A DNA stretch of 64,000 nt from Ignavibacteriota bacterium (GCA_963801355.1 CAWDEM010000008.1:1952001-2016000), one strand, 5' to 3'; counted from the stretch's first letter, positions 38,198 through 51,671 are shown. A program made the numbers and translations. The notes: generated by a model not told the origin, from the letters alone.

Positions 38198-38782
38198 ATG
38201 AAATCTCCGCTGCTTTTTTTCGATAGCGATGCCCGGATTCTGGATGGCATCCGGCAGGGAGATGAATCGGCGCTTGTGACGCTGTATGAAGCCCACCGGC
38301 GGCCAATTACGGCACATGTGATGCGCAATAACGGCACCCAGGATGATGCGAATGATGTCTTTCAGGAAGCCCTGGTCATTCTCTGGGAGCGCGTACGAGC
38401 CGGCAACTATCAGCACACTGCAGCCCTGGGGACATTCCTGTATGCCACAGCACGGAACCTCTGGCTCCGCCGCCTTGCCGTCGCATGGCGCGAAAGGCCG
38501 CTGGATCCAGACAGCGATGGCACCTCCAGCGATGATCCTTCACCCCTGGAAGATCTCGTCGCACACGAGACCACCACCGCCGTGCGGGACGCCCTGGACC
38601 GGCTGGGTGAACCGTGCCGCTCCCTTCTCGTGCTCTTCTATTGGGAGGAGGCGTCGATGGAGGAAATCGCCCGGCAACTGGGCCTGGCCAATGCGGCCAC
38701 AGCGAAATCAAAGAAGTATCAATGCAAAGAGCAACTCAAACGTTTGATGGAAGGAACCACCCACGGCCATGAACGGGGCTGA
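38198..38782 (+). CDS. ECF sigma factor
   Basis: Region 2 DANDVFQEAL...TFLYATARNLW; region 4 LGEPCRSLL...SMEEIARQLG. Confidence 0.9.
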   Translation: MKSPLLFFDSDARILDGIRQGDESALVTLYEAHRRPITAHVMRNNGTQDDANDVFQEALVILWERVRAGNYQHTAALGTFLYATARNLWLRRLAVAWRERPLDPDSDGTSSDDPSPLEDLVAHETTTAVRDALDRLGEPCRSLLVLFYWEEASMEEIARQLGLANAATAKSKKYQCKEQLKRLMEGTTHGHERG

Positions 38783-39806
38783 GAACAATCATCTCCTGCC
38801 GGAGACTATCGAAGATGCCGCCCTGGGGCGTCTGACACCCGACGAGCGTTCGAGAGTCGAATCCCACGTGCGCGACTGCGCCCTCTGTAGGGAGGCAATG
38901 GAACAGGAACGACTCATCGCCGCCGGAACAAAGGCATGGGGCCGCGCGGCTATGAAACAGAAGTTGGCGGGCCGGATTGCGGCCGCATCACAACAACGCA
39001 CACCCTGGCCTCACATCCTCTCGGCAGCCGCACTTCTGATTGTTATCATCGGTGTCGGCGTGCTCTTCCGATGGCGCTCCACCAACCGGGAACCGGAAGT
39101 GTCCTATTCCGATTCGGTCCTTTCGGGCGAATCGACAAAGAACGCCCCAACGGCTCCGGCCCCCTCTATCGCATCCGAGGAATCCTTCCGGGACCAGCTG
39201 CGTGAAAAGGACTCCCCTGCCGACCATGAAATCAGCCGACAGGACAAGAAAGGTGCACCCCGGACCGGGGCTCAGATGCCAGCGACCCGCACGGAAGCGG
39301 CGGCTGCCGAGGAACTGAAGAAACCGGCACAGGAACTGCCTGGTCCGGAGCAGCCTGTGTTGATGAAGTCAGTCACGGCTGACGAAGCCGTGAAGTCACC
39401 GGACATGGACGTCTGGGTGGAAGGCATGCAGTGGAGCACTCCCTACACCGGCGGCATGCAGACCCAGCCGGCCGGCGCTTCGAACCAGGGGGTGTCGGCG
39501 AACAGGCTCGAAGCACGCAGCAAAGCCCTCAAAAACGAAATGGCGCCGACTCCTGTTTTTGTCATTAACCAGCGTCCGCGAGGAGAGTTGCACGAGACTC
39601 GAGGGGGCGGCAAAGCAATAAAGACCACTCCTGCACATGTCGTGCGGGCGGGAGACACTCTGTACGTGACACTGTACCTGGATACGCTGTTGACTCCGCA
39701 GCAGCTGCGGTCGACCTTCGGACAGCAGGCGACGCCGGATTCATTTCACATCATGCTCCCCGACAGAATTCTCGGGTACAGAATCCCGGGGGGTCTTGCG
39801 CATTAG
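38769..39806 (+). CDS. Zinc-finger (HxxxCxxC) transmembrane anti-sigma factor
   Basis: HVRDCALC, single TM, periplasmic low-complexity region; overlaps the sigma gene end. Confidence 0.85.
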   Translation: MNGAENNHLLPETIEDAALGRLTPDERSRVESHVRDCALCREAMEQERLIAAGTKAWGRAAMKQKLAGRIAAASQQRTPWPHILSAAALLIVIIGVGVLFRWRSTNREPEVSYSDSVLSGESTKNAPTAPAPSIASEESFRDQLREKDSPADHEISRQDKKGAPRTGAQMPATRTEAAAAEELKKPAQELPGPEQPVLMKSVTADEAVKSPDMDVWVEGMQWSTPYTGGMQTQPAGASNQGVSANRLEARSKALKNEMAPTPVFVINQRPRGELHETRGGGKAIKTTPAHVVRAGDTLYVTLYLDTLLTPQQLRSTFGQQATPDSFHIMLPDRILGYRIPGGLAH

Positions 39807-39911: not shown

Positions 39912-41441
39912 TTAATGCTTCTGCGAGAACCAGAGAGGGAGATACGTGCGGGCACCGTATCCCGGTATGGCCAGTACGTTATCCACTTCTGCTGAATTGT
40001 CCGGGCCGTCGAGTGACGACCAGTGATGATAGTATCCCGCCGCCTGCACGAAAACGGTCCTGTGCATCCCATTTGCGAGCGACGGGACCGGATAGGAGAG
40101 GAGGACCGTGTCTCCCATCAGAGATGTGAGATAGCTGTCGTCCCGGTTCGCAACGAGCGGGGTGCAATCCGCTCCCCTTGAACCGGTCGCTGTCGCTGCA
40201 CGTACCGTCACACACTTCACTGGCATGTCTATCGACTCATCCACCCCGATCTGGTCTATGCGCCAGAGATCTGCCGTGCATTCAAGTCGGACGCGGAGTA
40301 CGCGTGCCCCGGGAGAAGGTACCGGCACGACGAGGATCTGTTCCTTCAGCAACTCTTCACCGGAGTCCATGAACACACCGGCCTTCTGCCACTCCGTGCC
40401 ATCCCAGACACTGACATGGAGCAAGCCCTCGCGCAGGAGAAACCCGCGCATCTGGTTCCCCTTGGCGGGGTCGTGCTCCAGCCTTCGAATCCATTGGGCG
40501 TATCCGCTGCCGCAAAGCTCTGAAAGTCGGTTGAATGTGAAAGAGGGCAGGAGCGTATTTTGTCCTCGCATCAGCAACTTCACCGATCCGGAGTTGCTCT
40601 TCAACTGGAACTCCGCCTCGAGCCGGTCGGTGAATTCCTCGGAATCGCCCTCCGACCCAACGTGCTTTTGACTTTCCCACAGGAGCCCGTCAGGTTCCCT
40701 CACAACTTCAAGCACCGACCCGGCGTTTCCATCGACACACTTCACGGGAGGCAGCAACGACGTAACGGTGTGGAACACTCCATCGGCTGAAGCCAGGACC
40801 TGAACATCATCCTGAACATCGACAGCGGAGAGTGTGAGTTCATTCACATAGTCTGTCTCCAGCCGCTCATTCATCAGTTTGATCAGATATTCGCCGTTGG
40901 ACGGCTCGATGTGCTCCAGGCGGTCGATCACCCTCCGTTCAGCGCCTTTATATATAGAGCCGGCAAAGGTCTCAGACGAAAGGACGAATCGGGATCCATC
41001 GAATGCGTAGACGAATGGACATGACCGAGTTTGTGGGTATGTAATATGATCAGTTGCCTCAAGGCCGTTTGTCGTCTGGAAGGCCGTTGCTACGAGACCG
41101 ACGGTTGAGCCGACGAGGCCAGCAAATACCACGGATTTGAAGAAATTGCCCTCTTTCAGATAAAGGTAGTCGATGGAATCGAGCGGGATTTGTCCGTCAT
41201 ATACAACATCCTCACCCTTCTGTAGCAGGCCTGCGAATTCCAATGTGCTATCCCTGAGAGTGTAGCGATCCAACCTGTATTCAGAACCATCGCGTGTGAT
41301 CACCACGAGCGGCTGCTGTTCTACACGCGGGCTGAGGTCAGAACGATTTGTTACCTCCCGGTACGTGTAGAGATAGGAACAGCCGGACATCGCCAGGAGT
41401 GCAGCAACGCTGGCAGCGACAACGAGATTCTGGATCATCAT
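39912..41441 (-). CDS. Lipoprotein of unknown function with an SCPFVY-type domain
   Basis: Lipobox LAMSGC; internal hydrophobic helix; SCPFVYAFDG...NERLETDY motif. Confidence 0.75.
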   Translation of the reverse strand: MMIQNLVVAASVAALLAMSGCSYLYTYREVTNRSDLSPRVEQQPLVVITRDGSEYRLDRYTLRDSTLEFAGLLQKGEDVVYDGQIPLDSIDYLYLKEGNFFKSVVFAGLVGSTVGLVATAFQTTNGLEATDHITYPQTRSCPFVYAFDGSRFVLSSETFAGSIYKGAERRVIDRLEHIEPSNGEYLIKLMNERLETDYVNELTLSAVDVQDDVQVLASADGVFHTVTSLLPPVKCVDGNAGSVLEVVREPDGLLWESQKHVGSEGDSEEFTDRLEAEFQLKSNSGSVKLLMRGQNTLLPSFTFNRLSELCGSGYAQWIRRLEHDPAKGNQMRGFLLREGLLHVSVWDGTEWQKAGVFMDSGEELLKEQILVVPVPSPGARVLRVRLECTADLWRIDQIGVDESIDMPVKCVTVRAATATGSRGADCTPLVANRDDSYLTSLMGDTVLLSYPVPSLANGMHRTVFVQAAGYYHHWSSLDGPDNSAEVDNVLAIPGYGARTYLPLWFSQKH

Positions 41442-42205
41442 GGCGTTGGCCCTCCTGAAAAGTGAAACAGGATTCTTGCGCCAGCCGAGAAACTGGAGAA
41501 ATTGGCGCTGCCGCGGTGGGAATTGGACGTGGAAGGCTGCACAAGATAGTAGGACCCGTCCAGAATCACCGAAAAATCCTCTATGAGTTCCAACTCCACC
41601 CCTCCACGAAGAAATCCCCCAAACTGCTGAGCCTCCATGTTGACCCCGCTGAGAATCCTGCCATTCCCCAGGGCGGCGTCATATTTCGCAGCGACGGTCG
41701 TACGGAAGAAGACAATCCCGGGACCGACGAAGCACTGGAAGAAGTTGTTGCCGGCAAACGACGGCATGTAGTATATGCCCAAGGTGCCCGCATAGATCCT
41801 GCTCTTCTCCTCGAAATTCCATCCACCTTCAAGATTCACCCGGAACTTCGAGGAGAAATCTATGCCGAATGAGACCCACATGAGCGGCGATGGAGTGAGT
41901 GTCAGAATGCCCTTGCCGACCTCAATCTCTCGCTTGAGATAGCTCTCCTCCCTGTCTCTCAACACTTGCTGAAGCCCATCAAAGTTTGGGCTGTAGCTTG
42001 TGATCCCGATTGTTCCGAACAGGTGCGGGTAGAAGCGCTTCTCGACGCGATCATGCCGGAATGCGTGGGGCAAGAATTCCGACTGCTCGCGAGATGCTCC
42101 TGCCACCGTTCCGGGACCTCTTTTGAGAGAGTCTCCCTTGCTGTATTGTGCATTTGCAGGAAACATCGCCGCACAGAGGAGGAGAAAAAGAAGGAGTGTT
42201 CGCAT
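41438..42205 (-). CDS. Small outer-membrane beta-barrel protein (OmpW/OmpA-barrel-like)
   Basis: Signal peptide; amphipathic strands ending FSAGARILFHF; 4-nt overlap with the lipoprotein gene. Confidence 0.65.
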   Translation of the reverse strand: MRTLLLFLLLCAAMFPANAQYSKGDSLKRGPGTVAGASREQSEFLPHAFRHDRVEKRFYPHLFGTIGITSYSPNFDGLQQVLRDREESYLKREIEVGKGILTLTPSPLMWVSFGIDFSSKFRVNLEGGWNFEEKSRIYAGTLGIYYMPSFAGNNFFQCFVGPGIVFFRTTVAAKYDAALGNGRILSGVNMEAQQFGGFLRGGVELELIEDFSVILDGSYYLVQPSTSNSHRGSANFSSFSAGARILFHFSGGPTP

Positions 42206-42276
42206 CGCGCACCTCTATTTCAAAAAGCATCACCCACCAATCTGGCCGCTTCCTCTTGCATCAGGAATCACATGCA

Positions 42277-42318
42277 AATGTAGCCCGCGGCTCCGGCTTC
42301 CATGTCACGGAAATGTCA
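42277..42318 (-). promoter_or_regulatory. Activator-type promoter C: direct-repeat box + -10
   Basis: Minus strand TGACA-TTTCCG-TGACA-N20-TACATT. Confidence 0.75.
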
Positions 42319-42381
42319 AAGGACTTACATATTCTGTTTGGGGAGTACAAGTGGCCTTCGGATGTCCCCCTGGCAGGAAGG

Positions 42382-42485
42382 TCAGGCTAAAAAGTCCCAG
42401 AATCAAGCCTGGGGAAAACCTCAGGCTTTTTTGTAAGGCTTTCTTGTCAGGGAAAAAACTCAGGCTATTTTGTCAGGCTTTTTTC
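42382..42485. repeat. Degenerate 13-bp tandem array (TCAGGCTTTTTTG-like, 8 in-phase units)
   Basis: tcaggctaaaaag / tcccagaatcaag / cctggggaaaacc / tcaggcttttttg / taaggctttcttg / tcagggaaaaaac / tcaggctattttg / tcaggcttttttc. Confidence 0.75.
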
Positions 42486-42517
42486 TATGTCCCAGGCTTC
42501 ATTTTATGTCCAATACT

Positions 42518-42559
42518 TGACGAATCTTTGACAACCCTCCCCCCCGGAACGCCTAATTT
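42518..42559 (+). promoter_or_regulatory. Activator-type promoter A: direct-repeat box + -10
   Basis: TGACG-AATCTT-TGACA-N20-TAATTT, upstream of RBS GAGGAG and ATG 42588. Confidence 0.75.
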
Positions 42560-42587
42560 ATCATCAGGAAATTAGAGGAGCTCAGCA

Positions 42588-43547
42588 ATGGAATCTCAAA
42601 TCACCACCCTCCGCGCTATGTGGATCACCATGCGCCCGTATCTGCTATTCGTTTCAGGGATTACGGGTATCGCCGGAATGGCGCTCAGCTCCACTACATC
42701 GGCTTTGCCGCTCTTCTCTGTATTCATCGCGTCATTCTTTGCCTACGGCTTTGGCCAGGCACTCACCGATTGCTTCCAGACCGACACCGATTCGATCTCT
42801 GCCCCTTACCGGCCGCTCGCAGCCGGTAAAGTCTCGCGCACGGCCATTCTCGTCATGAGCCTCCTCGGCCTCACAGCATGCGTCACCATTCTGGCCCTCA
42901 GAAATCCCTGGAACCTCGCCATCGGTCTCACAGGCGCCGCTGGACTCGCAACGTATACCACATTCAAACGGCGCTGGTGGGGTGGACCCTGGTACAATGC
43001 CTGGATCGTGGCCGGTCTTTGTGTCATGGGATTTCTCGGCGCAAACGGCGAAACACCGGCCCTGTTTCCGGCCGCCTTTCTCCCTATGCTTGCCACCGTC
43101 TTCTTCGGCTACGCCAACTTCGTCCTTTCAGGATATTTCAAGGACATCCGGGCTGATGCTGCCACCGGGTACTTGACATTTCCCGTGACCTTCGGGCGCC
43201 GGCCAGCCGCGATCGCCAGCGACCTTCTCGCCGTGCTCTTCCTGGCCTCGTCGGTCTGGGTCGCCATCATTGTGCTGGGCTCGACACAGCCCGAATCTTC
43301 TCATTTTTGGGCGCTGATCTTCGCCGTCCCCGGTGTCACGTATCTCGTGACTGCACAGATCCGGCTCCACCGGAATCGCACGGATCAGGAGGCATACGCG
43401 CCAATCCTCCGCGTGGTCCACGCATACATACTTGTCCTTTCTGCGCTGGCCTCGCTGCTGCATCCGGGATGGACTGTACTGCTTGTCATCCACTACACTC
43501 TCTTTGTTTTCGTTCTCTCCCGCCGCCCGGAGGTATCACAGATATGA
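42588..43547 (+). CDS. UbiA-superfamily prenyltransferase (chlorophyll synthase/DGGGP synthase-like)
   Basis: MRP start, multiple TMs, Asp motifs TDCFQTDTDSISAPYRPLAAG and FKDIRADAATG. Confidence 0.85.
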   Translation: MESQITTLRAMWITMRPYLLFVSGITGIAGMALSSTTSALPLFSVFIASFFAYGFGQALTDCFQTDTDSISAPYRPLAAGKVSRTAILVMSLLGLTACVTILALRNPWNLAIGLTGAAGLATYTTFKRRWWGGPWYNAWIVAGLCVMGFLGANGETPALFPAAFLPMLATVFFGYANFVLSGYFKDIRADAATGYLTFPVTFGRRPAAIASDLLAVLFLASSVWVAIIVLGSTQPESSHFWALIFAVPGVTYLVTAQIRLHRNRTDQEAYAPILRVVHAYILVLSALASLLHPGWTVLLVIHYTLFVFVLSRRPEVSQI

Positions 43548-44470
43548 TGATTCTGCTCAATCCACGGGCAGCGGGAGGAAAGGCGCCGGAAAAATGGCGC
43601 AGGATCTCTGCAGTCCTCCCACCCCACCGGGAGAGAATTGAATTTTGTTTTCTGAATTCGCACACGGACGTGGACGAGCTCGTGGAAAGAGCTGCCAAGC
43701 AGGGAGAATTGCACTATGTTGCCGCCGGAGGGGACGGGACAGTCAATGCTGTGGTCAACGCCCTCATGCGCCTTCCAGACGGACTGCGCAAGCGGGTTGT
43801 GTTCGGGGCCGTAGGACTGGGTTCCAGCAACGACTTTCACAAGCCTTTTGACACCGACCATACCATCGAAGGTGTCCCTGCAAGGTTGAACTTCGCGCGT
43901 CCAACATGGCGCGATGTCGTCCGCGTGGGAACCTCATTCAACGGCCAATCGTCTGTGCACTATTTCCTGATCAATGCAAGTGCAGGTATTGCAGCCGAAG
44001 GGAATGCCCTTTTCAACAAACCGGATTTCCTTCTGGCATGGTTGAAGATGCATGCTACGCCGCTGGCGATCCTGTATGCTGCGCTTCGTGCACTTGCATT
44101 CCACCGGAACCGTCCGCTCACCATCGAATCACCGGGGCATCCGGCGCAGCAATACCGCCTGACAAATCTCGGCATCGTCAAGAATCCTCATTTCTCGGGC
44201 TCACTGCGCTACGATATGCCGGCTCTCTATGACAACGGCAGCATGGGCGTGTTCGTAGCAGAAGAGATGAACCTGTGTGAACGCATTCGTCTCCTCCGGG
44301 CCCTATCATGTGGCGACTTCGGCCGCCTTGCGAAAACGCACACATGGCAGGCTTCTCATTTGACCATTGCAGCTCCGTCATGCTTTCCCCTGGAGCTTGA
44401 CGGTGAAATCCATCAGGCCAGTCGCGCCGAATTTTCCGTATTGCCCCGAATCCTACAGGTGTGCTCATGA
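43544..44470 (+). CDS. Diacylglycerol/sphingosine kinase family (YegS/DAGK_cat) lipid kinase
   Basis: LNPRAAGG, AAGGDGT, GLGSSNDF, LDGE; ATGA overlap with ubiA-like gene. Confidence 0.88.
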   Translation: MMILLNPRAAGGKAPEKWRRISAVLPPHRERIEFCFLNSHTDVDELVERAAKQGELHYVAAGGDGTVNAVVNALMRLPDGLRKRVVFGAVGLGSSNDFHKPFDTDHTIEGVPARLNFARPTWRDVVRVGTSFNGQSSVHYFLINASAGIAAEGNALFNKPDFLLAWLKMHATPLAILYAALRALAFHRNRPLTIESPGHPAQQYRLTNLGIVKNPHFSGSLRYDMPALYDNGSMGVFVAEEMNLCERIRLLRALSCGDFGRLAKTHTWQASHLTIAAPSCFPLELDGEIHQASRAEFSVLPRILQVCS

Positions 44471-45519
44471 TGCAACAGATACATGAAAATAGCTTCATCG
44501 CCCGTCTGGCATCATTCCTGCCTCATCAGCCGGCTCAGCTGAACGGTCTCCAGGAAAGCGATGCCGAGTTAATACGATTGCCCGGGGATGCACATCACAT
44601 CCTCGCCGTCACCACAGACGCAATAGTTGAAGAAATCGAGGCCGGTCTCTATGCCGACCCCTACCTCATCGGCTGGATGACCGTGATGTCAAATCTGAGC
44701 GATCTCGCGGCCGTCGGCGCGGAATCGATCGGACTCCTCGTGGCTGAGACACTCCCGCACGATGCTGCCGAGGAGGATCTCATAGCCCTCCAGACTGGGA
44801 TCCGCGATGCGTGCGTACGGTGTGGCACCTTCGTCCTGGGAGGAGACACCAACTTCAGCGACAGCTTCCGTACGACGGGAACGGCAATGGGGCTGATAAC
44901 GAATGGTTCACCTCTTATGCGCGTCCGATGTGCACCGGGCGAGATCCTGTACTGTACCGGCCGCCTCGGCACCGGGAATGCCTACGCCGCTCGCCAGCTC
45001 TCCGGAGACACACATCCAAATCCCACACTTTATCGCCCGGTCGCCCGCCTGCGGGAAGGCCTCTCTCTCCGCTCCGTTGCTTCCACCTGCATGGATTCCA
45101 GTGACGGCCTGTTTGCATCGCTCGATCAGCTCGGGCGGCTCAACAACTGCGGATTTCAATTGGAGATCGGGTGGGAGAACCAAATAGCGGATGAGGCGTC
45201 ACGTTTCGCAATGAGTTCCGGCCTGGATCCCTGGATGCTCTTTGCCGGTCCTCACGGAGAGTTCGAGCTGGTGTTCACAGTCCCGGAACCCCTTGTCGCG
45301 ACATTGCATCTGGCCGCCGCCAGGGCGGGATGGACTCCCATCCGGCTTGGTGTTGTGAGCGAAAACGCCGGTATCGGTCTGGGAGACTGGGGTCATTTTG
45401 ACCCGGAAGCCCTTGCTGCAATCAGAAACCACCATCTTCGTAGTAGTGCTGAAGTCCGCGCATTTCCTCGTTTTTTGGCAGTTCTGGCGGAAGGATGCAG
45501 GAATTCGACTGAAGGATGA
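44467..45519 (+). CDS. ThiL-like kinase (PurM/AIRS superfamily), divergent thiamine-monophosphate kinase homolog
   Basis: TTDAIVE, SNLSDLAAVGA, LGGDT, MDSSDGL, GEFELVF; ATGA overlap with DAGK gene. Confidence 0.8.
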   Translation: MMQQIHENSFIARLASFLPHQPAQLNGLQESDAELIRLPGDAHHILAVTTDAIVEEIEAGLYADPYLIGWMTVMSNLSDLAAVGAESIGLLVAETLPHDAAEEDLIALQTGIRDACVRCGTFVLGGDTNFSDSFRTTGTAMGLITNGSPLMRVRCAPGEILYCTGRLGTGNAYAARQLSGDTHPNPTLYRPVARLREGLSLRSVASTCMDSSDGLFASLDQLGRLNNCGFQLEIGWENQIADEASRFAMSSGLDPWMLFAGPHGEFELVFTVPEPLVATLHLAAARAGWTPIRLGVVSENAGIGLGDWGHFDPEALAAIRNHHLRSSAEVRAFPRFLAVLAEGCRNSTEG

Positions 45520-45558
45520 CAAAACGGTGACATCTCCCCGCCCCCCATGGCGTAACTT
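45517..45558 (+). promoter_or_regulatory. Activator-type promoter B: direct-repeat box + -10
   Basis: TGACA-AAACGG-TGACA-N20-TAACTT before ATG 45587. Confidence 0.75.
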
Positions 45559-45586
45559 GCAGTAGTTACACAACGGGAGATCGAAC

Positions 45587-46906
45587 ATGAAGACCGATGG
45601 TGTCTATCAGGGTGGAGAGAATTTCGACCTACGCGACGTCCTGCTGAAAGGACGATCGCTTCCCCTTTCCGAGCGAACCGCCTTTTTCCAGAGTTTCCTG
45701 CAGGATGTGAGGCAGCGTGAAGAAAACCTCTGTATGCGGTGCCTCACCTCGCCCTCAGACCGCGAAGTCACGATTCTGGATCCCTCGTCAGGTACCGAAC
45801 GGAAGATGCTCATGTTCGGCTCAAACAACTATTTGGGCCTTGCCACACACCCACATGTCATCCGGCAGACGGCAGCGGCGGTGCAGAGGTATGGCGCGGG
45901 TTTGGGCGGGCCGCCACTCCTCAACGGATATACCGCGCTGCACCGGGAGCTCGAAGAGCGCCTCGCCGCACTGAAGGGAACAGAGGATGCGATGATTTAC
46001 TCGAGCGGTTATGGCGCAAATGTCGGCCTGGTGTCCGGGTTGACGGGAAAGTCGGATATCATATTGTACGACGCCTACAGCCATGCGTCCTTCTGCGATG
46101 GCATTGCACTGTCCGGTGCACAATCGTTTCTCTTCTCGCACAACGATCTCTCGCATCTGACCATGTTGCTGGATCGTGCCCGCACCCGTCCGCATAACGA
46201 CATCTACGTCGGCGTGGAAGGTGTCTATTCGATGGATGGGGATCTGGCGCCGCTGAACAGAATCCTCGAGCTCTGTGATGCCTATGGGGCACATCTGATG
46301 CTTGATGACGCTCACGGCACAGGGGTGTTGGGAGGACACGGAAGAGGCAGCGCCGAACAGGCCGGGGTGGAAGGCCGTATTCCGATGACGATGGGAACAT
46401 TCAGCAAAGCATTCTCGGCCACGGGAGGATTCGTGGCTGCAAGCAAAGCAATCATCGATTACCTCAGGTACTTTGCGCGGTCGTATATGTTCTCTGCCTC
46501 GTTGCCGCCCGCAACGGTCGCAACGGTCATCGCCGGATTGGATGTCCTGGAACGTGAACCTGAAAGACTCCTGCGTCTCCACGAGAACGTAACATATGCC
46601 GCACAGCACCTCAGGAGGATGGGATTTGCCACTCCCGCGCAATCGGCAATTCTCCCTCTTCGCGTGCCGCAGGGGATGGACATTCGTCAGGCTTCCAGGG
46701 TATTCCATGAGAGGGGTATCTTCGTCAACTCTATCGAGTACCCTGCTGTCCCCGTATCCCAGCAGCGATTCCGCATCAGCATGATGGCAACGCACACGCA
46801 CGAGGATATTGACCGCCTGCTCGCGGTTGTCGAAGAAGTCTGGTCACTCCAGCGCCATGACATGAGGGAGGTTGCAGATGAAGCACATCAGCGCAATGCC
46901 GCATGA
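45587..46906 (+). CDS. PLP-dependent alpha-oxoamine synthase (serine palmitoyltransferase/Kbl/BioF family)
   Basis: GSNNYLGL, GYGAN, HAS, EGVYSMDGD, DDAHG, GTFSK (PLP Lys). Confidence 0.9.
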   Translation: MKTDGVYQGGENFDLRDVLLKGRSLPLSERTAFFQSFLQDVRQREENLCMRCLTSPSDREVTILDPSSGTERKMLMFGSNNYLGLATHPHVIRQTAAAVQRYGAGLGGPPLLNGYTALHRELEERLAALKGTEDAMIYSSGYGANVGLVSGLTGKSDIILYDAYSHASFCDGIALSGAQSFLFSHNDLSHLTMLLDRARTRPHNDIYVGVEGVYSMDGDLAPLNRILELCDAYGAHLMLDDAHGTGVLGGHGRGSAEQAGVEGRIPMTMGTFSKAFSATGGFVAASKAIIDYLRYFARSYMFSASLPPATVATVIAGLDVLEREPERLLRLHENVTYAAQHLRRMGFATPAQSAILPLRVPQGMDIRQASRVFHERGIFVNSIEYPAVPVSQQRFRISMMATHTHEDIDRLLAVVEEVWSLQRHDMREVADEAHQRNAA

Positions 46907-48308
46907 TCGGAAGAAACTCCTGATCATTGTCCTCTTTCAAAATCTTGGAGAAGACAACCCGTACTACGCACAGAGTCCTGCGCCGCCATTGCCCGGGATT
47001 CTCCTGGCTGCTCTCACGCCGGATATTGTGGACATCGAAGTCCTGCACGAGATGGTCCGCCCGATCGATTACAGCACCGATGCTGATTTCATCGCGCTCA
47101 GTTTCATGGACTACCTTTCGCCACACGCATACGACGTGGCTGCCCGGTTCCGGGCAATGGGAAAGGTTGTGGTCGGCGGAGGGAAATACGCGTCCACGTT
47201 TCCTGATGAAGTACAACCGCACTTTCATGCAATCCTCGTGGGAGAAGCACAGGAAGTGTGGCCGCAGATGGTCAGCGATATGGTCAACGGCACGCTCAAG
47301 GAACGGTACGAGGCGTCGGCATCACCGTCACTCGAGAATATACCCCCGCCCCGCTACGACCTTGTCGAGAAAGTGTATGCGACGCCCATCGTCACGGAAG
47401 CCACGCGAGGCTGCCCGCATCCCTGCACATACTGCCAGCTGAACATCAAGCGGATGCCCTTCCGCCAACGCCCGATTGCGGACGTCGTCCGTGACCTTTC
47501 AGCGACACAAGGCCTGCCGTGGTACAAGCGGAAAATGGCGATGCTATTGGATAACAATCTCGGCGGGGATCTTACCTACGCCAAGCAGCTGTTGCGTGCA
47601 ATTGCAGGGCTCCGGCTCTGGGGACTGGGCGTGCAGTTCAGCATCGAGTGCCTGCGGGATGATGATTTCATCGAGGCCCTGGCAGAGGCACGCTGCCGCA
47701 TGGCATTCATCGGCATGGAATCTCTTGAACCGAAGAGTCTCGCCGCCGTACAAAAGCGACAGAACAACGTCATGGAGTACCGGTCGATGTTTGAGCGGCT
47801 CCATCGGCGGGGAATACTGACATTTACCGGGTACATGTTTGCACTCGACGAAGACACGACGGAATACTACGACCGGCTCCCCGCACTTCTTGAAGAGGTC
47901 GGGACAACCGTGATCCTGCCGTCCATCGCCATCCCGCTGTACGGCACACCGCTGTACAGGACGGTCGTCGGCGAAGGACGTCTTGTTGACCGGGACCTGT
48001 CGCATTACGAGGGTGACCACATCGTATTCCGGCATAAGCATCTGAGCGAAACTCAGATCCATGAAGCGTATGCCCGGGTCACGATGGGCTTCTACGGCTG
48101 GAAGAACATTCTGAGCCGCTGGGCAAGGTTCATGGGAAAGCAGGAGAAACGGGGATCATGGCGCGCATTTGTCCTCCAACTTCTCATTCTCACATTCATT
48201 TACACGAAGCTGTCGATATTCCAGCGGCACCATGCATTGGTAAGAATCACAGGTGCAAGGAAAGAGGCGGAACCAGCAAGGAAGCAGGAAGAAAAGTTGG
48301 CGGCGTAG
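46878..48308 (+). CDS. B12-binding-domain radical SAM protein
   Basis: N-terminal Rossmann B12 domain (VVVGG), RGCPHPCTYC, IGMES, PLYGT. Confidence 0.88.
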   Translation: MKHISAMPHDRKKLLIIVLFQNLGEDNPYYAQSPAPPLPGILLAALTPDIVDIEVLHEMVRPIDYSTDADFIALSFMDYLSPHAYDVAARFRAMGKVVVGGGKYASTFPDEVQPHFHAILVGEAQEVWPQMVSDMVNGTLKERYEASASPSLENIPPPRYDLVEKVYATPIVTEATRGCPHPCTYCQLNIKRMPFRQRPIADVVRDLSATQGLPWYKRKMAMLLDNNLGGDLTYAKQLLRAIAGLRLWGLGVQFSIECLRDDDFIEALAEARCRMAFIGMESLEPKSLAAVQKRQNNVMEYRSMFERLHRRGILTFTGYMFALDEDTTEYYDRLPALLEEVGTTVILPSIAIPLYGTPLYRTVVGEGRLVDRDLSHYEGDHIVFRHKHLSETQIHEAYARVTMGFYGWKNILSRWARFMGKQEKRGSWRAFVLQLLILTFIYTKLSIFQRHHALVRITGARKEAEPARKQEEKLAA

Positions 48309-48414
48309 GTCCGACCCCAACCGATTGATGATTGTCACTAGTCTATTGACTATTGACAAGTGGTCCGGGTCTGACCCCTTGTGCATGGGGAAGACATAGG
48401 GGTTTGACCCCTAT
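48307..48414. repeat. Three REP-like GGGGTnnGACCCC palindromes between convergent genes
   Basis: AGGTCCGACCCC (48307), GGGTCTGACCCC (48367), ATAGGGGTTTGACCCCTAT (48396). Confidence 0.6.
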
Positions 48415-49091
48415 TTTTGAAATTTGTACCCTGCTGTATGCACCGTGATAATGTGCCTGGGTTTCGTCGCATCGTCCTCGAGTTTCTTCCGGAGAGCCAG
48501 GATATAATTGTCGACCGTCCGTGTCGTGGGAAAGGTTTCGTACCCCCACACCTGGTTCAGCAGCATGCCACGCGTGACCACTTCTCCCTCGTGCTGCACG
48601 AGAAACTTCAGCACTGAGTATTCGCGCACGGAGAGCTTTACCTTCCTTCCTTTCCGCGTCGCCTCCTGTCGGACGAAGTCGACTTCCACCTCTCCGAATG
48701 AGCACGTTTCAATGTCCTTCGTCAATCCCCCCTTACGCCTCAGAAGGGCCCTGACCCGGGCGAGCAGTTCGCGGACGGAAAACGGCTTCGTCATATAGTC
48801 ATCGGCACCCATTTCCAGCCCGAGCACCTTGTCCATCTCCATCCCCTTGGACGTGAGCATCATAATCGGGGTGGATACGCCGCTCCCGCGCAGCTCTTTG
48901 CACACATCCTCCCCGTTGATGTCCGGAAGACCCAGATCCAGGATGATCAGGTCGACGTGTTCATTGCGTCCCAGGGCAAGACCGCGTGCGCCGTTGGGAG
49001 CCGTCAGAACCGTGTAGTGTTCCTTCTCCAGAACGTCCTGCAGCCCCAGCTGAATGGAAGCATCATCTTCAACGATGAGTATGGTCTTCAT
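48411..49091 (-). CDS. OmpR/PhoB-family response regulator
   Basis: ATG 49091 MKTILIVEDD, LDLGLP, GADDYMTKPF, wHTH TRTVDNYILALRKKLE. Confidence 0.95.
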   Translation of the reverse strand: MKTILIVEDDASIQLGLQDVLEKEHYTVLTAPNGARGLALGRNEHVDLIILDLGLPDINGEDVCKELRGSGVSTPIMMLTSKGMEMDKVLGLEMGADDYMTKPFSVRELLARVRALLRRKGGLTKDIETCSFGEVEVDFVRQEATRKGRKVKLSVREYSVLKFLVQHEGEVVTRGMLLNQVWGYETFPTTRTVDNYILALRKKLEDDATKPRHIITVHTAGYKFQK

Positions 49092-49092
49092 G

Positions 49093-51603
49093 TCAGCGGG
49101 AATCCCTCTTGTTGGTGGGACTTCGTTTGCGGGCCTTCTTGACCGTTGGCGGGAGGGGAAACACCAGGGTGAATGTGCTCCCCTTTTCCGGCACACTACG
49201 GACTTCAATCTTTCCCCCGTGTGCATCCATGATGTGCCTCACGACGGAGAGCCCCAATCCGACTCCTTGAATGCGCCTGGGCAGTGACGGGTCGCGGTAG
49301 AACTTCTGAAAGAGGTGCGGCATCACCCCGGCAGGTATTCCGCGTCCGAAATCCTTCACGCTGCACAACACCGTCTTGCCCGTCCTGCCGACGGTGATAC
49401 AGATCTTTTTCTTGTCGCCCGAATACTTCATGGCATTCGTCAGCAGGTTCAGCAGCGCCTCCCTGACCGCGTCCGGATCGGCATTGATCCGGTAGGCATC
49501 AGGCGACTTGCTCCGCCCGTCCCGCGCGACGTCAAGAACAACGCTGTACTGTTCCTTTGCCAGTTGATACTTCATCGTCTGGAGGGTCTCACGGACAAGA
49601 GCATCCAGCCGCACGTTCTGCATGGTGTACTGTTGTTCTCCCTGGTCGATTTTGGACGAGTCCAGAATGGTATTCACCATGCGGTGCAATCGATCTGATT
49701 CGCCTTCAATGATGCGCACATATTCCCGGGCACGCCGGTCGCCGCGGGGGAGCCGTTCCGCAAGGAGTTCGGCAAACATCCTGATGGAGGTCAGCGGCGT
49801 GCGCAGCTCATGAGAGACATACGAAACGAAATCGGACTTCATGACGTTCAGCCGCTGCAGACGGCCGGCTTCATCACTCTTCTCCATCACCGCGCGCTGG
49901 AGCAGGATGCGCTCCATTTCCGCACCCCCCTGCATCGCAAGGTTGCCGAGCAAATCCACATCCTCGCTGGTAAACACCGTACCGGCCTTCTTCCGACCCA
50001 GGAGCAGCATCCCGCGCAATTGCCGGTTGGCACGAATCACGGGGCAGACAAGAGCCAGCTGACATTCTTCAAGGAGTGATGCATCAGCTTCACGATGGGA
50101 GACTCCCGGCTCGATCGCACCGGGGAGTCCGAGAAGTATCCCCCCGGCTTCCTCGGCATGCCGTTTCAGCACCGCGAGGCGATCCGGTGGTCCTGTCTCA
50201 ATCCCCCGCGCGCCGATGAGGCGCAATGCACCGTCGTGATCCACGAGCAGGAATCCGATCCGTTCCACCGGCAGCAGCGTATCGATGCGCTCCACGATCA
50301 GATTCCCCAGATCGTCGACCGTCGCGCATGTCTTCACGTCCCCCTGAAATCTGCGGGCCGCCTGCCGGAAATCGTACCGCACGCGGAAGAATCGTCGATC
50401 CACAGCCTGTTGCACAACCCGGCGCGTCGGCTCGAACAGCAGAGCGAGCACGATCGCCGCCCCCGCAGAAATACCCAGCGACCATCCATACGTGGCATGG
50501 GACACCACTGCAGCTAATCCTCCCACGATGCCCATGTAGACCAGCACCACCATCGCCATGACCGTGCCATAGACCAGACTGCGATTGAGCAGCAGATCAA
50601 TGTCCATGATATGGTATTTGATGATGGAGATGCCGAAGGCCACCGGGATGATACCGGAGGCCAGCAGCATGACCGACTCAGGAACGAGCCCGTAACTCAA
50701 CACCATGGAAGGAATGATCCAAAGCAGGACAAAGGGCAGGAAACCGACGAACATCCCCCAGACCACCCAGCGGAGTTTTCTCCGTTCCGGTTCCTCGCCG
50801 GCTCTGAGGTACGACTGACGTATTGCCCAGAGTCCCCCGGCAACCAGCACAATAAGAAACACCCGTGTGGCACTAAACCACTGGAGGTGCGTGTGGAATG
50901 CGTCGATAGAGTTGCCAGACCAGGCCTGCATGAAGGACATGCCGCTGCCGGTGGCGAGAATGATCGCGGCGCCGTACAAGGGGATGATCAGTCTTCTTCC
51001 CGGTGTTGTGCTGGGGCGAGGAAAGAGGCGCGTCAGATGGAAAAATGCAACCGGGATGAAAGCATACATTGCAGAGAACACAACGCGGACAAGCACTCCG
51101 AGGAAGGCGGGAGCGGTTACGTAGGAACCCCACGTCGTGGAAAGCTGCACCGCCGTGGCAACAGATCCGAAGTGATAGACGAGTGCGGCGGGATCCCCGG
51201 GTTTCTTCCAGACAACGATTAGTCCGACGCCGAAGAAAAGGGTGCTGACGAGGATCACTGACAGGAGGTAAAAAGGGCCGTAGTAATGCTGCAGAACAGC
51301 CTGTTCGATGCGCGGCCCGGTTGCGCCGGCGATGCTCAGGGTCACGGTATCGCCTATCCGGCAACCGTCCAACACAAACTCCAGATCATCCACATACTTC
51401 AGGGGGTGCCCGTTCACGGCGAGGAGGGCCTCACCATCGCGCATCTGTTTTGTGAAAGACTCCCCGGTGACCCTGGTGCAAAAGACGGTATCATTCCAGG
51501 CGCTGATGACAATGGGCAGTCCGGGCTTCGCATTGATCTGCACAATGCCCGCACAACAGAGGATGAAAGCGACGACATCGATCAGGACAATCAGAATGCG
51601 CAT
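49093..51603 (-). CDS. Sensor histidine kinase: TM-PDZ-like-multi-TM-GAF-HisKA-HATPase
   Basis: GEALLAVNG (PDZ-like), many TM helices, GAF (FTSEDVDLL), SHELRTPL, NLLTNAMKY, DFGRG, GVGLGL. Confidence 0.9.
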   Translation of the reverse strand: MRILIVLIDVVAFILCCAGIVQINAKPGLPIVISAWNDTVFCTRVTGESFTKQMRDGEALLAVNGHPLKYVDDLEFVLDGCRIGDTVTLSIAGATGPRIEQAVLQHYYGPFYLLSVILVSTLFFGVGLIVVWKKPGDPAALVYHFGSVATAVQLSTTWGSYVTAPAFLGVLVRVVFSAMYAFIPVAFFHLTRLFPRPSTTPGRRLIIPLYGAAIILATGSGMSFMQAWSGNSIDAFHTHLQWFSATRVFLIVLVAGGLWAIRQSYLRAGEEPERRKLRWVVWGMFVGFLPFVLLWIIPSMVLSYGLVPESVMLLASGIIPVAFGISIIKYHIMDIDLLLNRSLVYGTVMAMVVLVYMGIVGGLAAVVSHATYGWSLGISAGAAIVLALLFEPTRRVVQQAVDRRFFRVRYDFRQAARRFQGDVKTCATVDDLGNLIVERIDTLLPVERIGFLLVDHDGALRLIGARGIETGPPDRLAVLKRHAEEAGGILLGLPGAIEPGVSHREADASLLEECQLALVCPVIRANRQLRGMLLLGRKKAGTVFTSEDVDLLGNLAMQGGAEMERILLQRAVMEKSDEAGRLQRLNVMKSDFVSYVSHELRTPLTSIRMFAELLAERLPRGDRRAREYVRIIEGESDRLHRMVNTILDSSKIDQGEQQYTMQNVRLDALVRETLQTMKYQLAKEQYSVVLDVARDGRSKSPDAYRINADPDAVREALLNLLTNAMKYSGDKKKICITVGRTGKTVLCSVKDFGRGIPAGVMPHLFQKFYRDPSLPRRIQGVGLGLSVVRHIMDAHGGKIEVRSVPEKGSTFTLVFPLPPTVKKARKRSPTNKRDSR

Positions 51604-51642
51604 GGGCGAATATACGCATTCATTTGGTCCTCCGCCAGCACA

Positions 51643-51671
51643 TTGCATTTACACCTCTTTTTCGGTATACT
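51643..51671 (+). promoter_or_regulatory. Sigma70 promoter of smpB-tyrS
   Basis: TTGCAT-N17-TATACT. Confidence 0.65.

Follow-up and report, generated by a model that had tools for sequence, protein, structure and literature searches.

Thiamine-monophosphate kinase (ThiL, EC 2.7.4.16) is regarded as a single-function enzyme, and the conversion of a phosphate into a diphosphate is, to our knowledge, the only chemistry known for it. Here, a ThiL-like protein is described that is encoded in a stretch of 64,000 nucleotides (nt) from an Ignavibacteriota bacterium (GCA_963801355.1, CAWDEM010000008.1:1952001-2016000; hereafter the window, meaning the whole stretch analyzed). Its gene is the last of three + strand open reading frames (ORFs) that fill positions 42588-45519 and that were assigned, by ORF and profile searches, to a UbiA-like enzyme, a DAGK/YegS-like kinase, and a ThiL-like kinase. 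An earlier note on this DNA had proposed that the two kinases phosphorylate a prenol or phytol, or else a sphingoid alcohol, in two steps and hand the diphosphate to the UbiA enzyme. From the sequence comparisons and models presented below, what we rate as new is a predicted neofunctionalized ThiL paralogue within an undescribed, widely conserved putative lipid operon.

Several described systems resemble parts of this locus. For ThiL itself, the accessible text of the PaThiL study (PMC13254938) describes Asp30, Asp47, Asp75, and Asp211 as strictly conserved metal ligands, the loops Gly28-Asp29-Asp30 and Ser213-Asp214-Gly215-Leu216 as conserved, together with Asp122 and Thr123, and thiamine monophosphate (TMP) as hydrogen-bonded by His54 and Tyr189. 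The salvage of phytol and farnesol by VTE5/FOLK and VTE6 takes an alcohol to its monophosphate, then to its diphosphate, and on to a UbiA-family transferase; in the accessible parts of PMC9782597, the plant and cyanobacterial VTE5/FOLK proteins are given as modestly similar to dolichol kinase, VTE6 is given as COG1836, and the genes known for such lipid-phosphate kinases are few and come from plants and cyanobacteria, VTE6 being an example. Bacterial DAGK-fold kinases, whose ATP motif is GGDG, act on ceramide (CpgB), dihydrosphingosine (P. gingivalis), and phosphatidylglycerol (YegS), as far as the accessible text of PMC10331486 goes. Regarding UbiA enzymes, N68 and D72 of AfUbiA coordinate Mg and their mutation abolishes geranyl diphosphate binding, according to the part of PMC4106721 at hand. 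A full-text literature search, which also covered prenol and prenyl-phosphate kinases and left subscription journals mostly outside, returned no paper on the gene combination found here.

A Conserved Unit of Three Genes

The UbiA-superfamily membrane transferase (319 amino acids (aa), 42588-43547, +, PF01040 at 93 bits), the divergent DAGK/YegS-fold soluble kinase (308 aa, 43544-44470, +, PF00781 DAGK_cat and PF19279 YegS_C), and the ThiL-like kinase of the PurM superfamily (350 aa, 44467-45519, +, PF00586 AIRS, with TIGR01379 as best family) are joined by ATGA stop/start overlaps that are read directly in the raw sequence at 43544-43547 and 44467-44470 and that speak for translational coupling. 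The coordinates, overlaps, and motifs quoted in the earlier note were all reproduced; its interval is exact for the trio and stops too early for the operon, which runs past 45519 into a synthase gene and a radical-SAM gene on the same strand.

Relatives of the locus were collected by scanning prokaryote genomes, one for each species, which gave 381 stretches, and the counts reported here come from the best 80 of them (L012-L091), genes being detected by tblastn with the window proteins and, for the synthase, radical-SAM, and regulator genes, at an identity of at least 50%. Of 8000 candidates scored against the ThiL-like protein, 1487 are relatives at E<=0.001, and identity is 46-82% in the best 120. 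A DAGK-like gene adjoins the ThiL-like gene in 80/80 loci, and a UbiA-like gene is present in 73 of them, the seven loci without it running into contig ends; under strict criteria, the order UbiA-DAGK-ThiL is colinear in 64. Three gene orders were seen, that of Saprospiraceae being ThiL-synthase-DUF3419-x-DAGK-UbiA, and in one Lentimicrobiaceae locus the DAGK and UbiA genes lie inverted nearby. An SPT-like synthase follows downstream on the same strand in 53 loci, and an orthologue of the B12 radical-SAM enzyme occurs in 55, of which 13 carry it divergently upstream (the Gemmatimonadota type). All-against-all comparison of the ORFs further detected an SDR family in ~30 of the 80 loci, mostly immediately 5' of UbiA, and a ~150-aa protein without clear family in 18.

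By record title, the loci belong to Ignavibacteriota, Bacteroidota (including Saprospiraceae, Lentimicrobiaceae, and one metagenome-assembled genome (MAG) labeled Chlorobiaceae), Gemmatimonadota, and Caldithrix (Calditrichota), with one MAG labeled Akkermansiaceae and another labeled Dehalococcoidia. The trio therewith spans at least four phyla, in hosts from anoxic sediment, peat, and soil. Among 31 relatives of the window genome, the ThiL-like gene was found in nine, including all five genomes of the genus and few others, so the module is an accessory one, patchily distributed in bacteria of the FCB group. The trio is the invariant core of a variable module of five to seven genes, and its arrangement goes far beyond chance, which supports the earlier proposal that the three genes form a functional unit.

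Some clusters (those of Saprospiraceae, L056, L067, L077, L085, and L091, and also L019) exchange the radical-SAM gene for others, namely DUF3419, a gene of the fatty-acid hydroxylase family, a PhoD-like phosphatase, or a GNAT gene with an ABC/FtsX exporter. DUF3419 is the family of the betaine-lipid enzyme BtaA. These variant partners hint at differing head-group or chain modification of one core lipid. A candidate for a natural UbiA-DAGK-AIRS fusion, the metagenomic 726-aa protein P0121, has hits to all three Pfam families and was discarded because it reads as truncated or frameshifted pieces.

The ThiL-Like Protein

On TIGR01379, the ThiL-like protein scores 147.6 bits, below the cut-off of 184.15, and on PF00586 it scores 70 bits. 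The canonical ThiLs of the phylum reach ~230-330 bits on the former model, above its cut-off in 113 of the 151 genomes sampled, and 25-67 bits when scored against the window protein. In a quick maximum-likelihood IQ-TREE phylogeny of 85 rows, with SelD, HypE, and PurM of the window genome as outgroups, a single clade that holds the 16 canonical ThiLs (SH-aLRT 97, branch 2.62) is separated from the 66 ThiL-like rows; the support for the split on the ThiL-like side is only 66%, and the outgroup branches are very long.

The AlphaFold2 model of the protein (pLDDT 87.3) finds ThiL structures as its top Foldseek matches (2yxz, 5cc8, 3c9u, and 8yku, E 1e-22 to 1e-20), followed by SelD, HypE, and PurM. 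With ThiL (5cc8, 8yku, 3c9t, 2yxz) it shares the two-domain PurM-superfamily fold, the set of metal-binding aspartates, GGDT, and SDGL, and presumably the same phosphate-to-diphosphate chemistry; unlike ThiL, it has an additional C-terminal helix at residues ~327-345. The motifs SDLAAVG, GGDT, DSSDGL, ESD, and GEFE are all present in its translation. The GDD loop is replaced by E30-S31-D32, the consensus being esD in the 66 ThiL-like proteins versus GDD(AA) in the 16 canonical ThiLs, and in the same alignment the position of canonical GGEDYELL is taken by HGEFE. The canonical motifs that the earlier note had used for comparison (GDD and GEDYE) were right, the 16 ThiLs of the phylum carrying GDDAA and GGEDYELL.

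Residues were mapped through a phmmer alignment to chain 8yks_B, in which the chain index equals the residue number plus 22. The PaThiL residues D30, D47, D75, D122, T123, and D211 are kept as D32, D51, D79, D127, T128, and D210 of the window protein, and S213-D214-G215-L216 as S212-D213-G214-L215. On the contrary, G28-D29 is changed to E30-S31, H54 to E58, D219 to S218, and H222 to Q221, and the counterpart of Y189 is ambiguous, falling in an insertion beside Y189 of the window protein. In none of the 17 aligned orthologues is residue 58 a His, its place being taken by E, A, D, or N, and the clade has invariant residues of its own, such as E55-E56, Y62, W70, and R320-N321. We read this pattern as a phosphoryl-transfer machinery that is likely intact and an acceptor pocket that has probably been rebuilt. 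Since the phosphoryl-transfer core is kept, a step from monophosphate to diphosphate would be the simplest chemistry for the protein.

Its PurM-superfamily fold, with SelD, HypE, and PurM as next structural neighbors, the altered GDD loop and several altered pocket residues, and the presence of an aminoketone-producing enzyme in the same operon also fit another reaction, i.e., the activation of a carbonyl or amide oxygen with ATP, as in PurM, PurL, and HypE, by which, for instance, an intermediate derived from the alpha-aminoketone of the synthase could be cyclized or dehydrated. However, ThiL, rather than PurM or HypE, is the closest relative in both sequence and fold, the metal set and SDGL loop of ThiL are kept, and the invariant neighbor is a kinase, from which a phosphomonoester would be expected, the synthase being absent from some clusters. 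We thus take carbonyl activation to be distinctly improbable.

Very improbable, in turn, would be an ordinary if divergent TMP kinase that serves thiamine salvage and lies in the operon by chance. ThiL is the best family of the protein, its relatives are publicly annotated as thiamine-monophosphate kinase, and it is the sole ThiL-family gene both in the window genome, which is 100% complete in 8 contigs and where a genome-wide search for a second ThiL left only SelD, HypE, and PurM as remaining family matches, and in G151. Yet five genomes with the cluster were tested, and four of them (G152-G155) encode a canonical ThiL (230-319 bits) in addition to the cluster copy (159-170 bits), G151 having the cluster copy only. 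In the window genome, moreover, a genome-wide search gave no match to ThiE or ThiC, and a thiamine pyrophosphokinase is present (147 bits). To these observations are to be added the score below the curated cut-off, far from that of the canonical ThiLs of the phylum, the loss of the TMP-contacting His54, and the constant linkage to the DAGK-like gene; a search of 41000-49500 against Rfam (E up to 1) detected no family, thiamine pyrophosphate (TPP) riboswitch, or RNA leader. In the loci analyzed, the ThiL-like gene is always linked to DAGK or UbiA genes and was never seen with thiamine genes, in which it again differs from ThiL.

Judged by its genes, the window organism looks like a thiamine auxotroph and should form TPP directly from imported thiamine, with no TMP made de novo. 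In its class, most of the sampled genomes likewise give no ThiL match.

Four of six defining ThiL features tested are absent here, namely a score above the cut-off, the GDD loop, the TMP contacts, and a TMP-kinase role in the genome. The grouping with housekeeping ThiL that would have spoken against the earlier proposal was looked for, and a separate clade, coexistence with canonical ThiL, and loss of the TMP-binding histidine were found instead. The ThiL-like protein is thus a separate paralogue of thiamine-phosphate kinase, predicted to be neofunctionalized, that almost certainly no longer acts on thiamine, and in several hundred species-level genomes the label "thiamine-monophosphate kinase" is very probably an error. 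A mislabeled clade of this kind would mislead attempts to predict how environmental bacteria handle vitamin B1.

The DAGK-Like Kinase and the UbiA-Like Enzyme

The DAGK-like protein matches PF00781 with 62.3 bits and PF19279 with 40 bits, both above gathering, and stays below the cut-off of TIGR00147 (YegS/Rv2252/BmrU), on which it scores 65.7 versus 118.65. It carries GGDG (as AAGGDGT), GSSNDF, and DGE. With CpgB, the P. gingivalis dihydrosphingosine kinase, YegS, and DgkB it shares DAGK_cat and YegS_C, GGDG, a soluble nature, and presumably lipid-alcohol substrates, the likeness to CpgB and dhSphK1 being drawn from descriptions of these enzymes. It differs from them in its distance, since its closest match in the PDB, DgkB (2qv7), reaches 33 bits and a separate, standard YegS-family paralogue (158.5 bits on TIGR00147) is encoded elsewhere in the window genome. 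Matches in the ESM Atlas were to generic DAGK/YegS clusters only. The protein thus appears distant from every characterized subgroup.

Regarding the UbiA-like protein, its 93 bits on PF01040 compare with a gathering threshold of 34.2, and its best NCBIfam scores (65, 58, and 46 bits versus cut-offs of 269-353) give no membership in DGGGPS, ChlG/BchG, UbiA, MenA, or EboC. Its AlphaFold2 model is all-helical (pLDDT 93.1), and the nearest folds are DGGGPS 6m31, which is also the best sequence match in the PDB, then AfUbiA 4tq4 and ApUbiA 4od5. DGGGPS (6m31/7bpu) and AfUbiA are therefore its nearest solved relatives (44 bits, TM 0.64-0.72), with motif II and the RPL segment conserved, although identity is 19%. 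Motif II reads K185-D186-I-R-A-D190, a canonical DxxxD in which D186 and D190 are invariant. Motif I, canonically NDxxDxxxD, is T60-D61-C-F-Q64-T-D66-T-D68 (TDCFQTDTD) and invariant in 21 orthologues. The protein would consequently be a UbiA-fold transferase with a remodeled diphosphate/metal site, which calls for caution with models that assume a standard prenyl diphosphate donor. A further difference from DGGGPS systems is that no PcrB/GGGPS match was found in the window genome, relatives giving weak or unrelated matches only, and a link to archaeal-type ether lipids was discarded on this ground. The kinase and the transferase belong to the DAGK and UbiA superfamilies, and seemingly to no characterized subfamily of either.

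The Downstream Genes and the Lipid Genes of the Genome

The first gene after the trio (45587-46906, +) encodes a 439-aa alpha-oxoamine synthase (PF00155 at 193 bits). It reaches no equivalog cut-off, scoring 374.9 versus 426 on bioF and 356.6 versus 640 on the SPT-CFB model NF047600, and its best solved relative is the Sphingobacterium SPT (8guh/3a2b, 270 bits), followed by KBL at ~250. These scores point to an alpha-oxoamine synthase subfamily of its own, nearest to SPT and KBL/BioF. The likeness to the bacterial Spt/bCerS/CerR ceramide pathway lies in an alpha-oxoamine synthase nearest to the Sphingobacterium SPT and in the SDRs that accompany many loci; the difference is that the cluster synthase remains below the SPT cut-offs and has two further paralogues in the genome, a KBL (514 bits) and a synthase closer to SPT.

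This second SPT-like synthase (480 bits on NF047600) lies outside the window, at ~996.4-999.9 kb of contig C8, and comparable matches (~460-525 bits on the SPT-CFB model) occur in most of the 31 relatives. Among the same 31, only relatives with the cluster have a synthase of the cluster type (336-364 bits). The second locus looks like one for sphingolipid synthesis, and the order to which the organism belongs probably makes ceramide-type lipids. Around the second synthase there are a GNAT acyltransferase and an uncharacterized 363-aa ORF as flanking genes, and a polyprenyl synthase lies ~3 kb away.

The last gene of the operon (46872-48308, +) encodes a B12-binding radical-SAM enzyme (PF04055 and PF02310) with the cluster motif CPHPCTYC, for which no NCBIfam equivalog cut-off was reached. 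Its start is ambiguous between TTG 46872, ATG 46878, and ATG 46896. Elsewhere, the window genome encodes IspH and three polyprenyl synthases, so that isoprenoid auxotrophy was discarded as a ground for prenol salvage.

Proposed Route and Its Alternatives

The operon probably builds or modifies a membrane lipid. The most economical reading of the trio would be a two-step activation, R-OH to R-P to R-PP, that feeds the UbiA enzyme: (i) the divergent DAGK-fold kinase would phosphorylate a membrane-associated alcohol, R-OH, to R-P, (ii) the ThiL-like enzyme would add a second phosphate to give R-PP, and (iii) the UbiA-fold membrane enzyme would join R to an acceptor, using R-PP with loss of diphosphate. 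That the DAGK-like protein makes R-P, the ThiL-like protein R-PP, and the UbiA-fold enzyme consumes it, we consider just short of probable. R may be an isoprenoid alcohol in modified form or else a long-chain amino alcohol from the SPT-like synthase of the cluster, whose product would be reduced by the SDR in the ~30 loci that have one, and the B12 radical-SAM enzyme would probably methylate or otherwise modify an unactivated lipid carbon. The appeal of such a route is that it assigns to each invariant protein a chemistry known for its fold.

As for the activation route put forward in the earlier note, the unit of three genes and the kept ATP and metal core stand, and its prenol or phytol substrate fares less well in view of IspH, the three polyprenyl synthases, and the altered motif I; the route had also left out the conserved SPT-like synthase, the B12 radical-SAM enzyme, and the SDR. 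These conserved partners speak no less strongly for an amino-alcohol lipid, and prenol salvage is not favored over an amino-alcohol, sphingoid-like substrate. The analogy with VTE5/VTE6 holds in that the logic would be the same and the folds are unrelated, the window kinases being of the PF00781 (DAGK) and PF00586 (PurM) folds; the operon differs further by its SPT-like synthase and B12 radical-SAM enzyme.

Several points weigh against an activation of this kind. The two Mg ligands of AfUbiA, N68 and D72, correspond to T60 and Q64, and because both are replaced, diphosphate binding by the UbiA-like enzyme may be unusual or absent. With de novo isoprenoid genes present, the organism has no need to salvage prenols. 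For a UbiA enzyme, the diphosphate of a saturated amino alcohol would chemically be an unusual donor, and gene order does not reveal reaction order. In G153 and G155, whose clusters are of the Gemmatimonadota type, the whole genome lacks an orthologue of the cluster synthase, the best matches showing 43% and 40% identity, and therefore no one source of the substrate accounts for every locus. Finally, five genomes, namely the window genome (G000), G151, G004, G052, and G108, have scores in the ThiL-like range with no canonical ThiL seen, and in these a residual role as TMP kinase or in salvage is possible.

In a different division of labor, the kinases would act on the acceptor. A sphingoid amino alcohol from the SPT-like synthase and the SDR would be converted into its 1-phosphate by the DAGK-fold kinase, in the manner of the P. 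gingivalis dihydrosphingosine kinase or Caulobacter CpgB, the UbiA enzyme would prenylate this phospholipid from the ordinary prenyl pool, and the ThiL-like enzyme would turn the phosphate head into a diphosphate, either as an activating step or to form the final head group. Such a scheme draws on the frequency of the synthase (53/80) and SDR (~30) in the loci, on SPT as the best solved relative of the cluster synthase, on the proximity of the UbiA-like protein to DGGGPS, an enzyme whose alkylated acceptor is a lipid phosphate, and on the precedent of DAGK-fold sphingoid and ceramide kinases in the accessible text of PMC10331486. It would also suit the SPT-like paralogue of most relatives, which in the window genome adjoins a GNAT gene, and the availability of prenyl diphosphate made de novo through IspH and polyprenyl synthases. 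However, motif I is the prenyl diphosphate/Mg site and is the very part altered, the Gemmatimonadota-type clusters lack the cluster-type synthase, and what is invariant is the trio and not the synthase. We know of no lipid diphosphate head group of the kind proposed, which weighs against it as well. A role of the kinases on the acceptor side is, in our view, rather unlikely.

Returning to the activation of an alcohol for the UbiA enzyme, its boldest form would make the ThiL-like protein the first non-thiamine enzyme of the ThiL family, a lipid-phosphate kinase of prenyl or sphingoid type, which together with the DAGK-fold kinase would pyrophosphorylate a membrane alcohol for a non-canonical UbiA enzyme, within a six-gene module (SDR, UbiA, two kinases, SPT-like synthase, and B12 radical SAM) that would make an undescribed class of membrane lipid in Ignavibacteriota, Bacteroidota, Gemmatimonadota, and Calditrichota. 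We advance this full version tentatively, as a possibility clearly short of probable. If a lipid diphosphate is indeed made, it would represent a new route to UbiA substrates and a genetically defined lipid-phosphate kinase, an activity with few known genes. The phyla that share the operon are abundant in sediments, peat, and soil, and what it produces could be a membrane lipid or biomarker that has so far gone unrecognized.

Upstream Region and Neighboring Genes

The 382-nt divergent intergenic region 5' of the UbiA gene contains an array of CAGGCT-containing direct repeats (42369-42511), seen on inspection of the sequence, e.g., CAGGCTTTTTTGT, with spacings of 39, 13, and 19 nt, and a weak promoter-like site at 42444-42471. 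A hairpin followed by a T-run is also found within it, at 42405-42428. In the 67-nt gap between the ThiL-like and synthase genes, a terminator scan detected no terminator-like site; counts of predicted terminators and promoters were not above those in shuffled sequence.

Convergent with the operon, on the - strand, domain searches identified an OmpR-family response regulator (48411-49226) and its partner, a GAF-domain sensor histidine kinase (49093-51648). Response-regulator homologues lie beside the cluster in 27 of the 80 loci, and a related family of histidine-kinase ORFs (828 aa) is present in 20. The CAGGCT array is possibly a regulator binding site and could be bound by the conserved OmpR-type regulator downstream; a regulatory tie between this regulator and the operon is presumed. 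As listed, the regulator and kinase ORFs share 134 nt, and the true start of the regulator is therefore probably later than 49226.

On the other side of the intergenic region, two divergent ORFs of 509 and 255 aa occupy 39912-42205 on the - strand. They match no Pfam or NCBIfam family and are kept beside the cluster only in the closest relatives (L012 and L013, weakly L018). Upstream of them, at 38198-39806 on the + strand, a 194-aa ORF is followed by an anti-sigma-like protein (zf-HC2), and our guess is that the two constitute an ECF sigma/anti-sigma pair.

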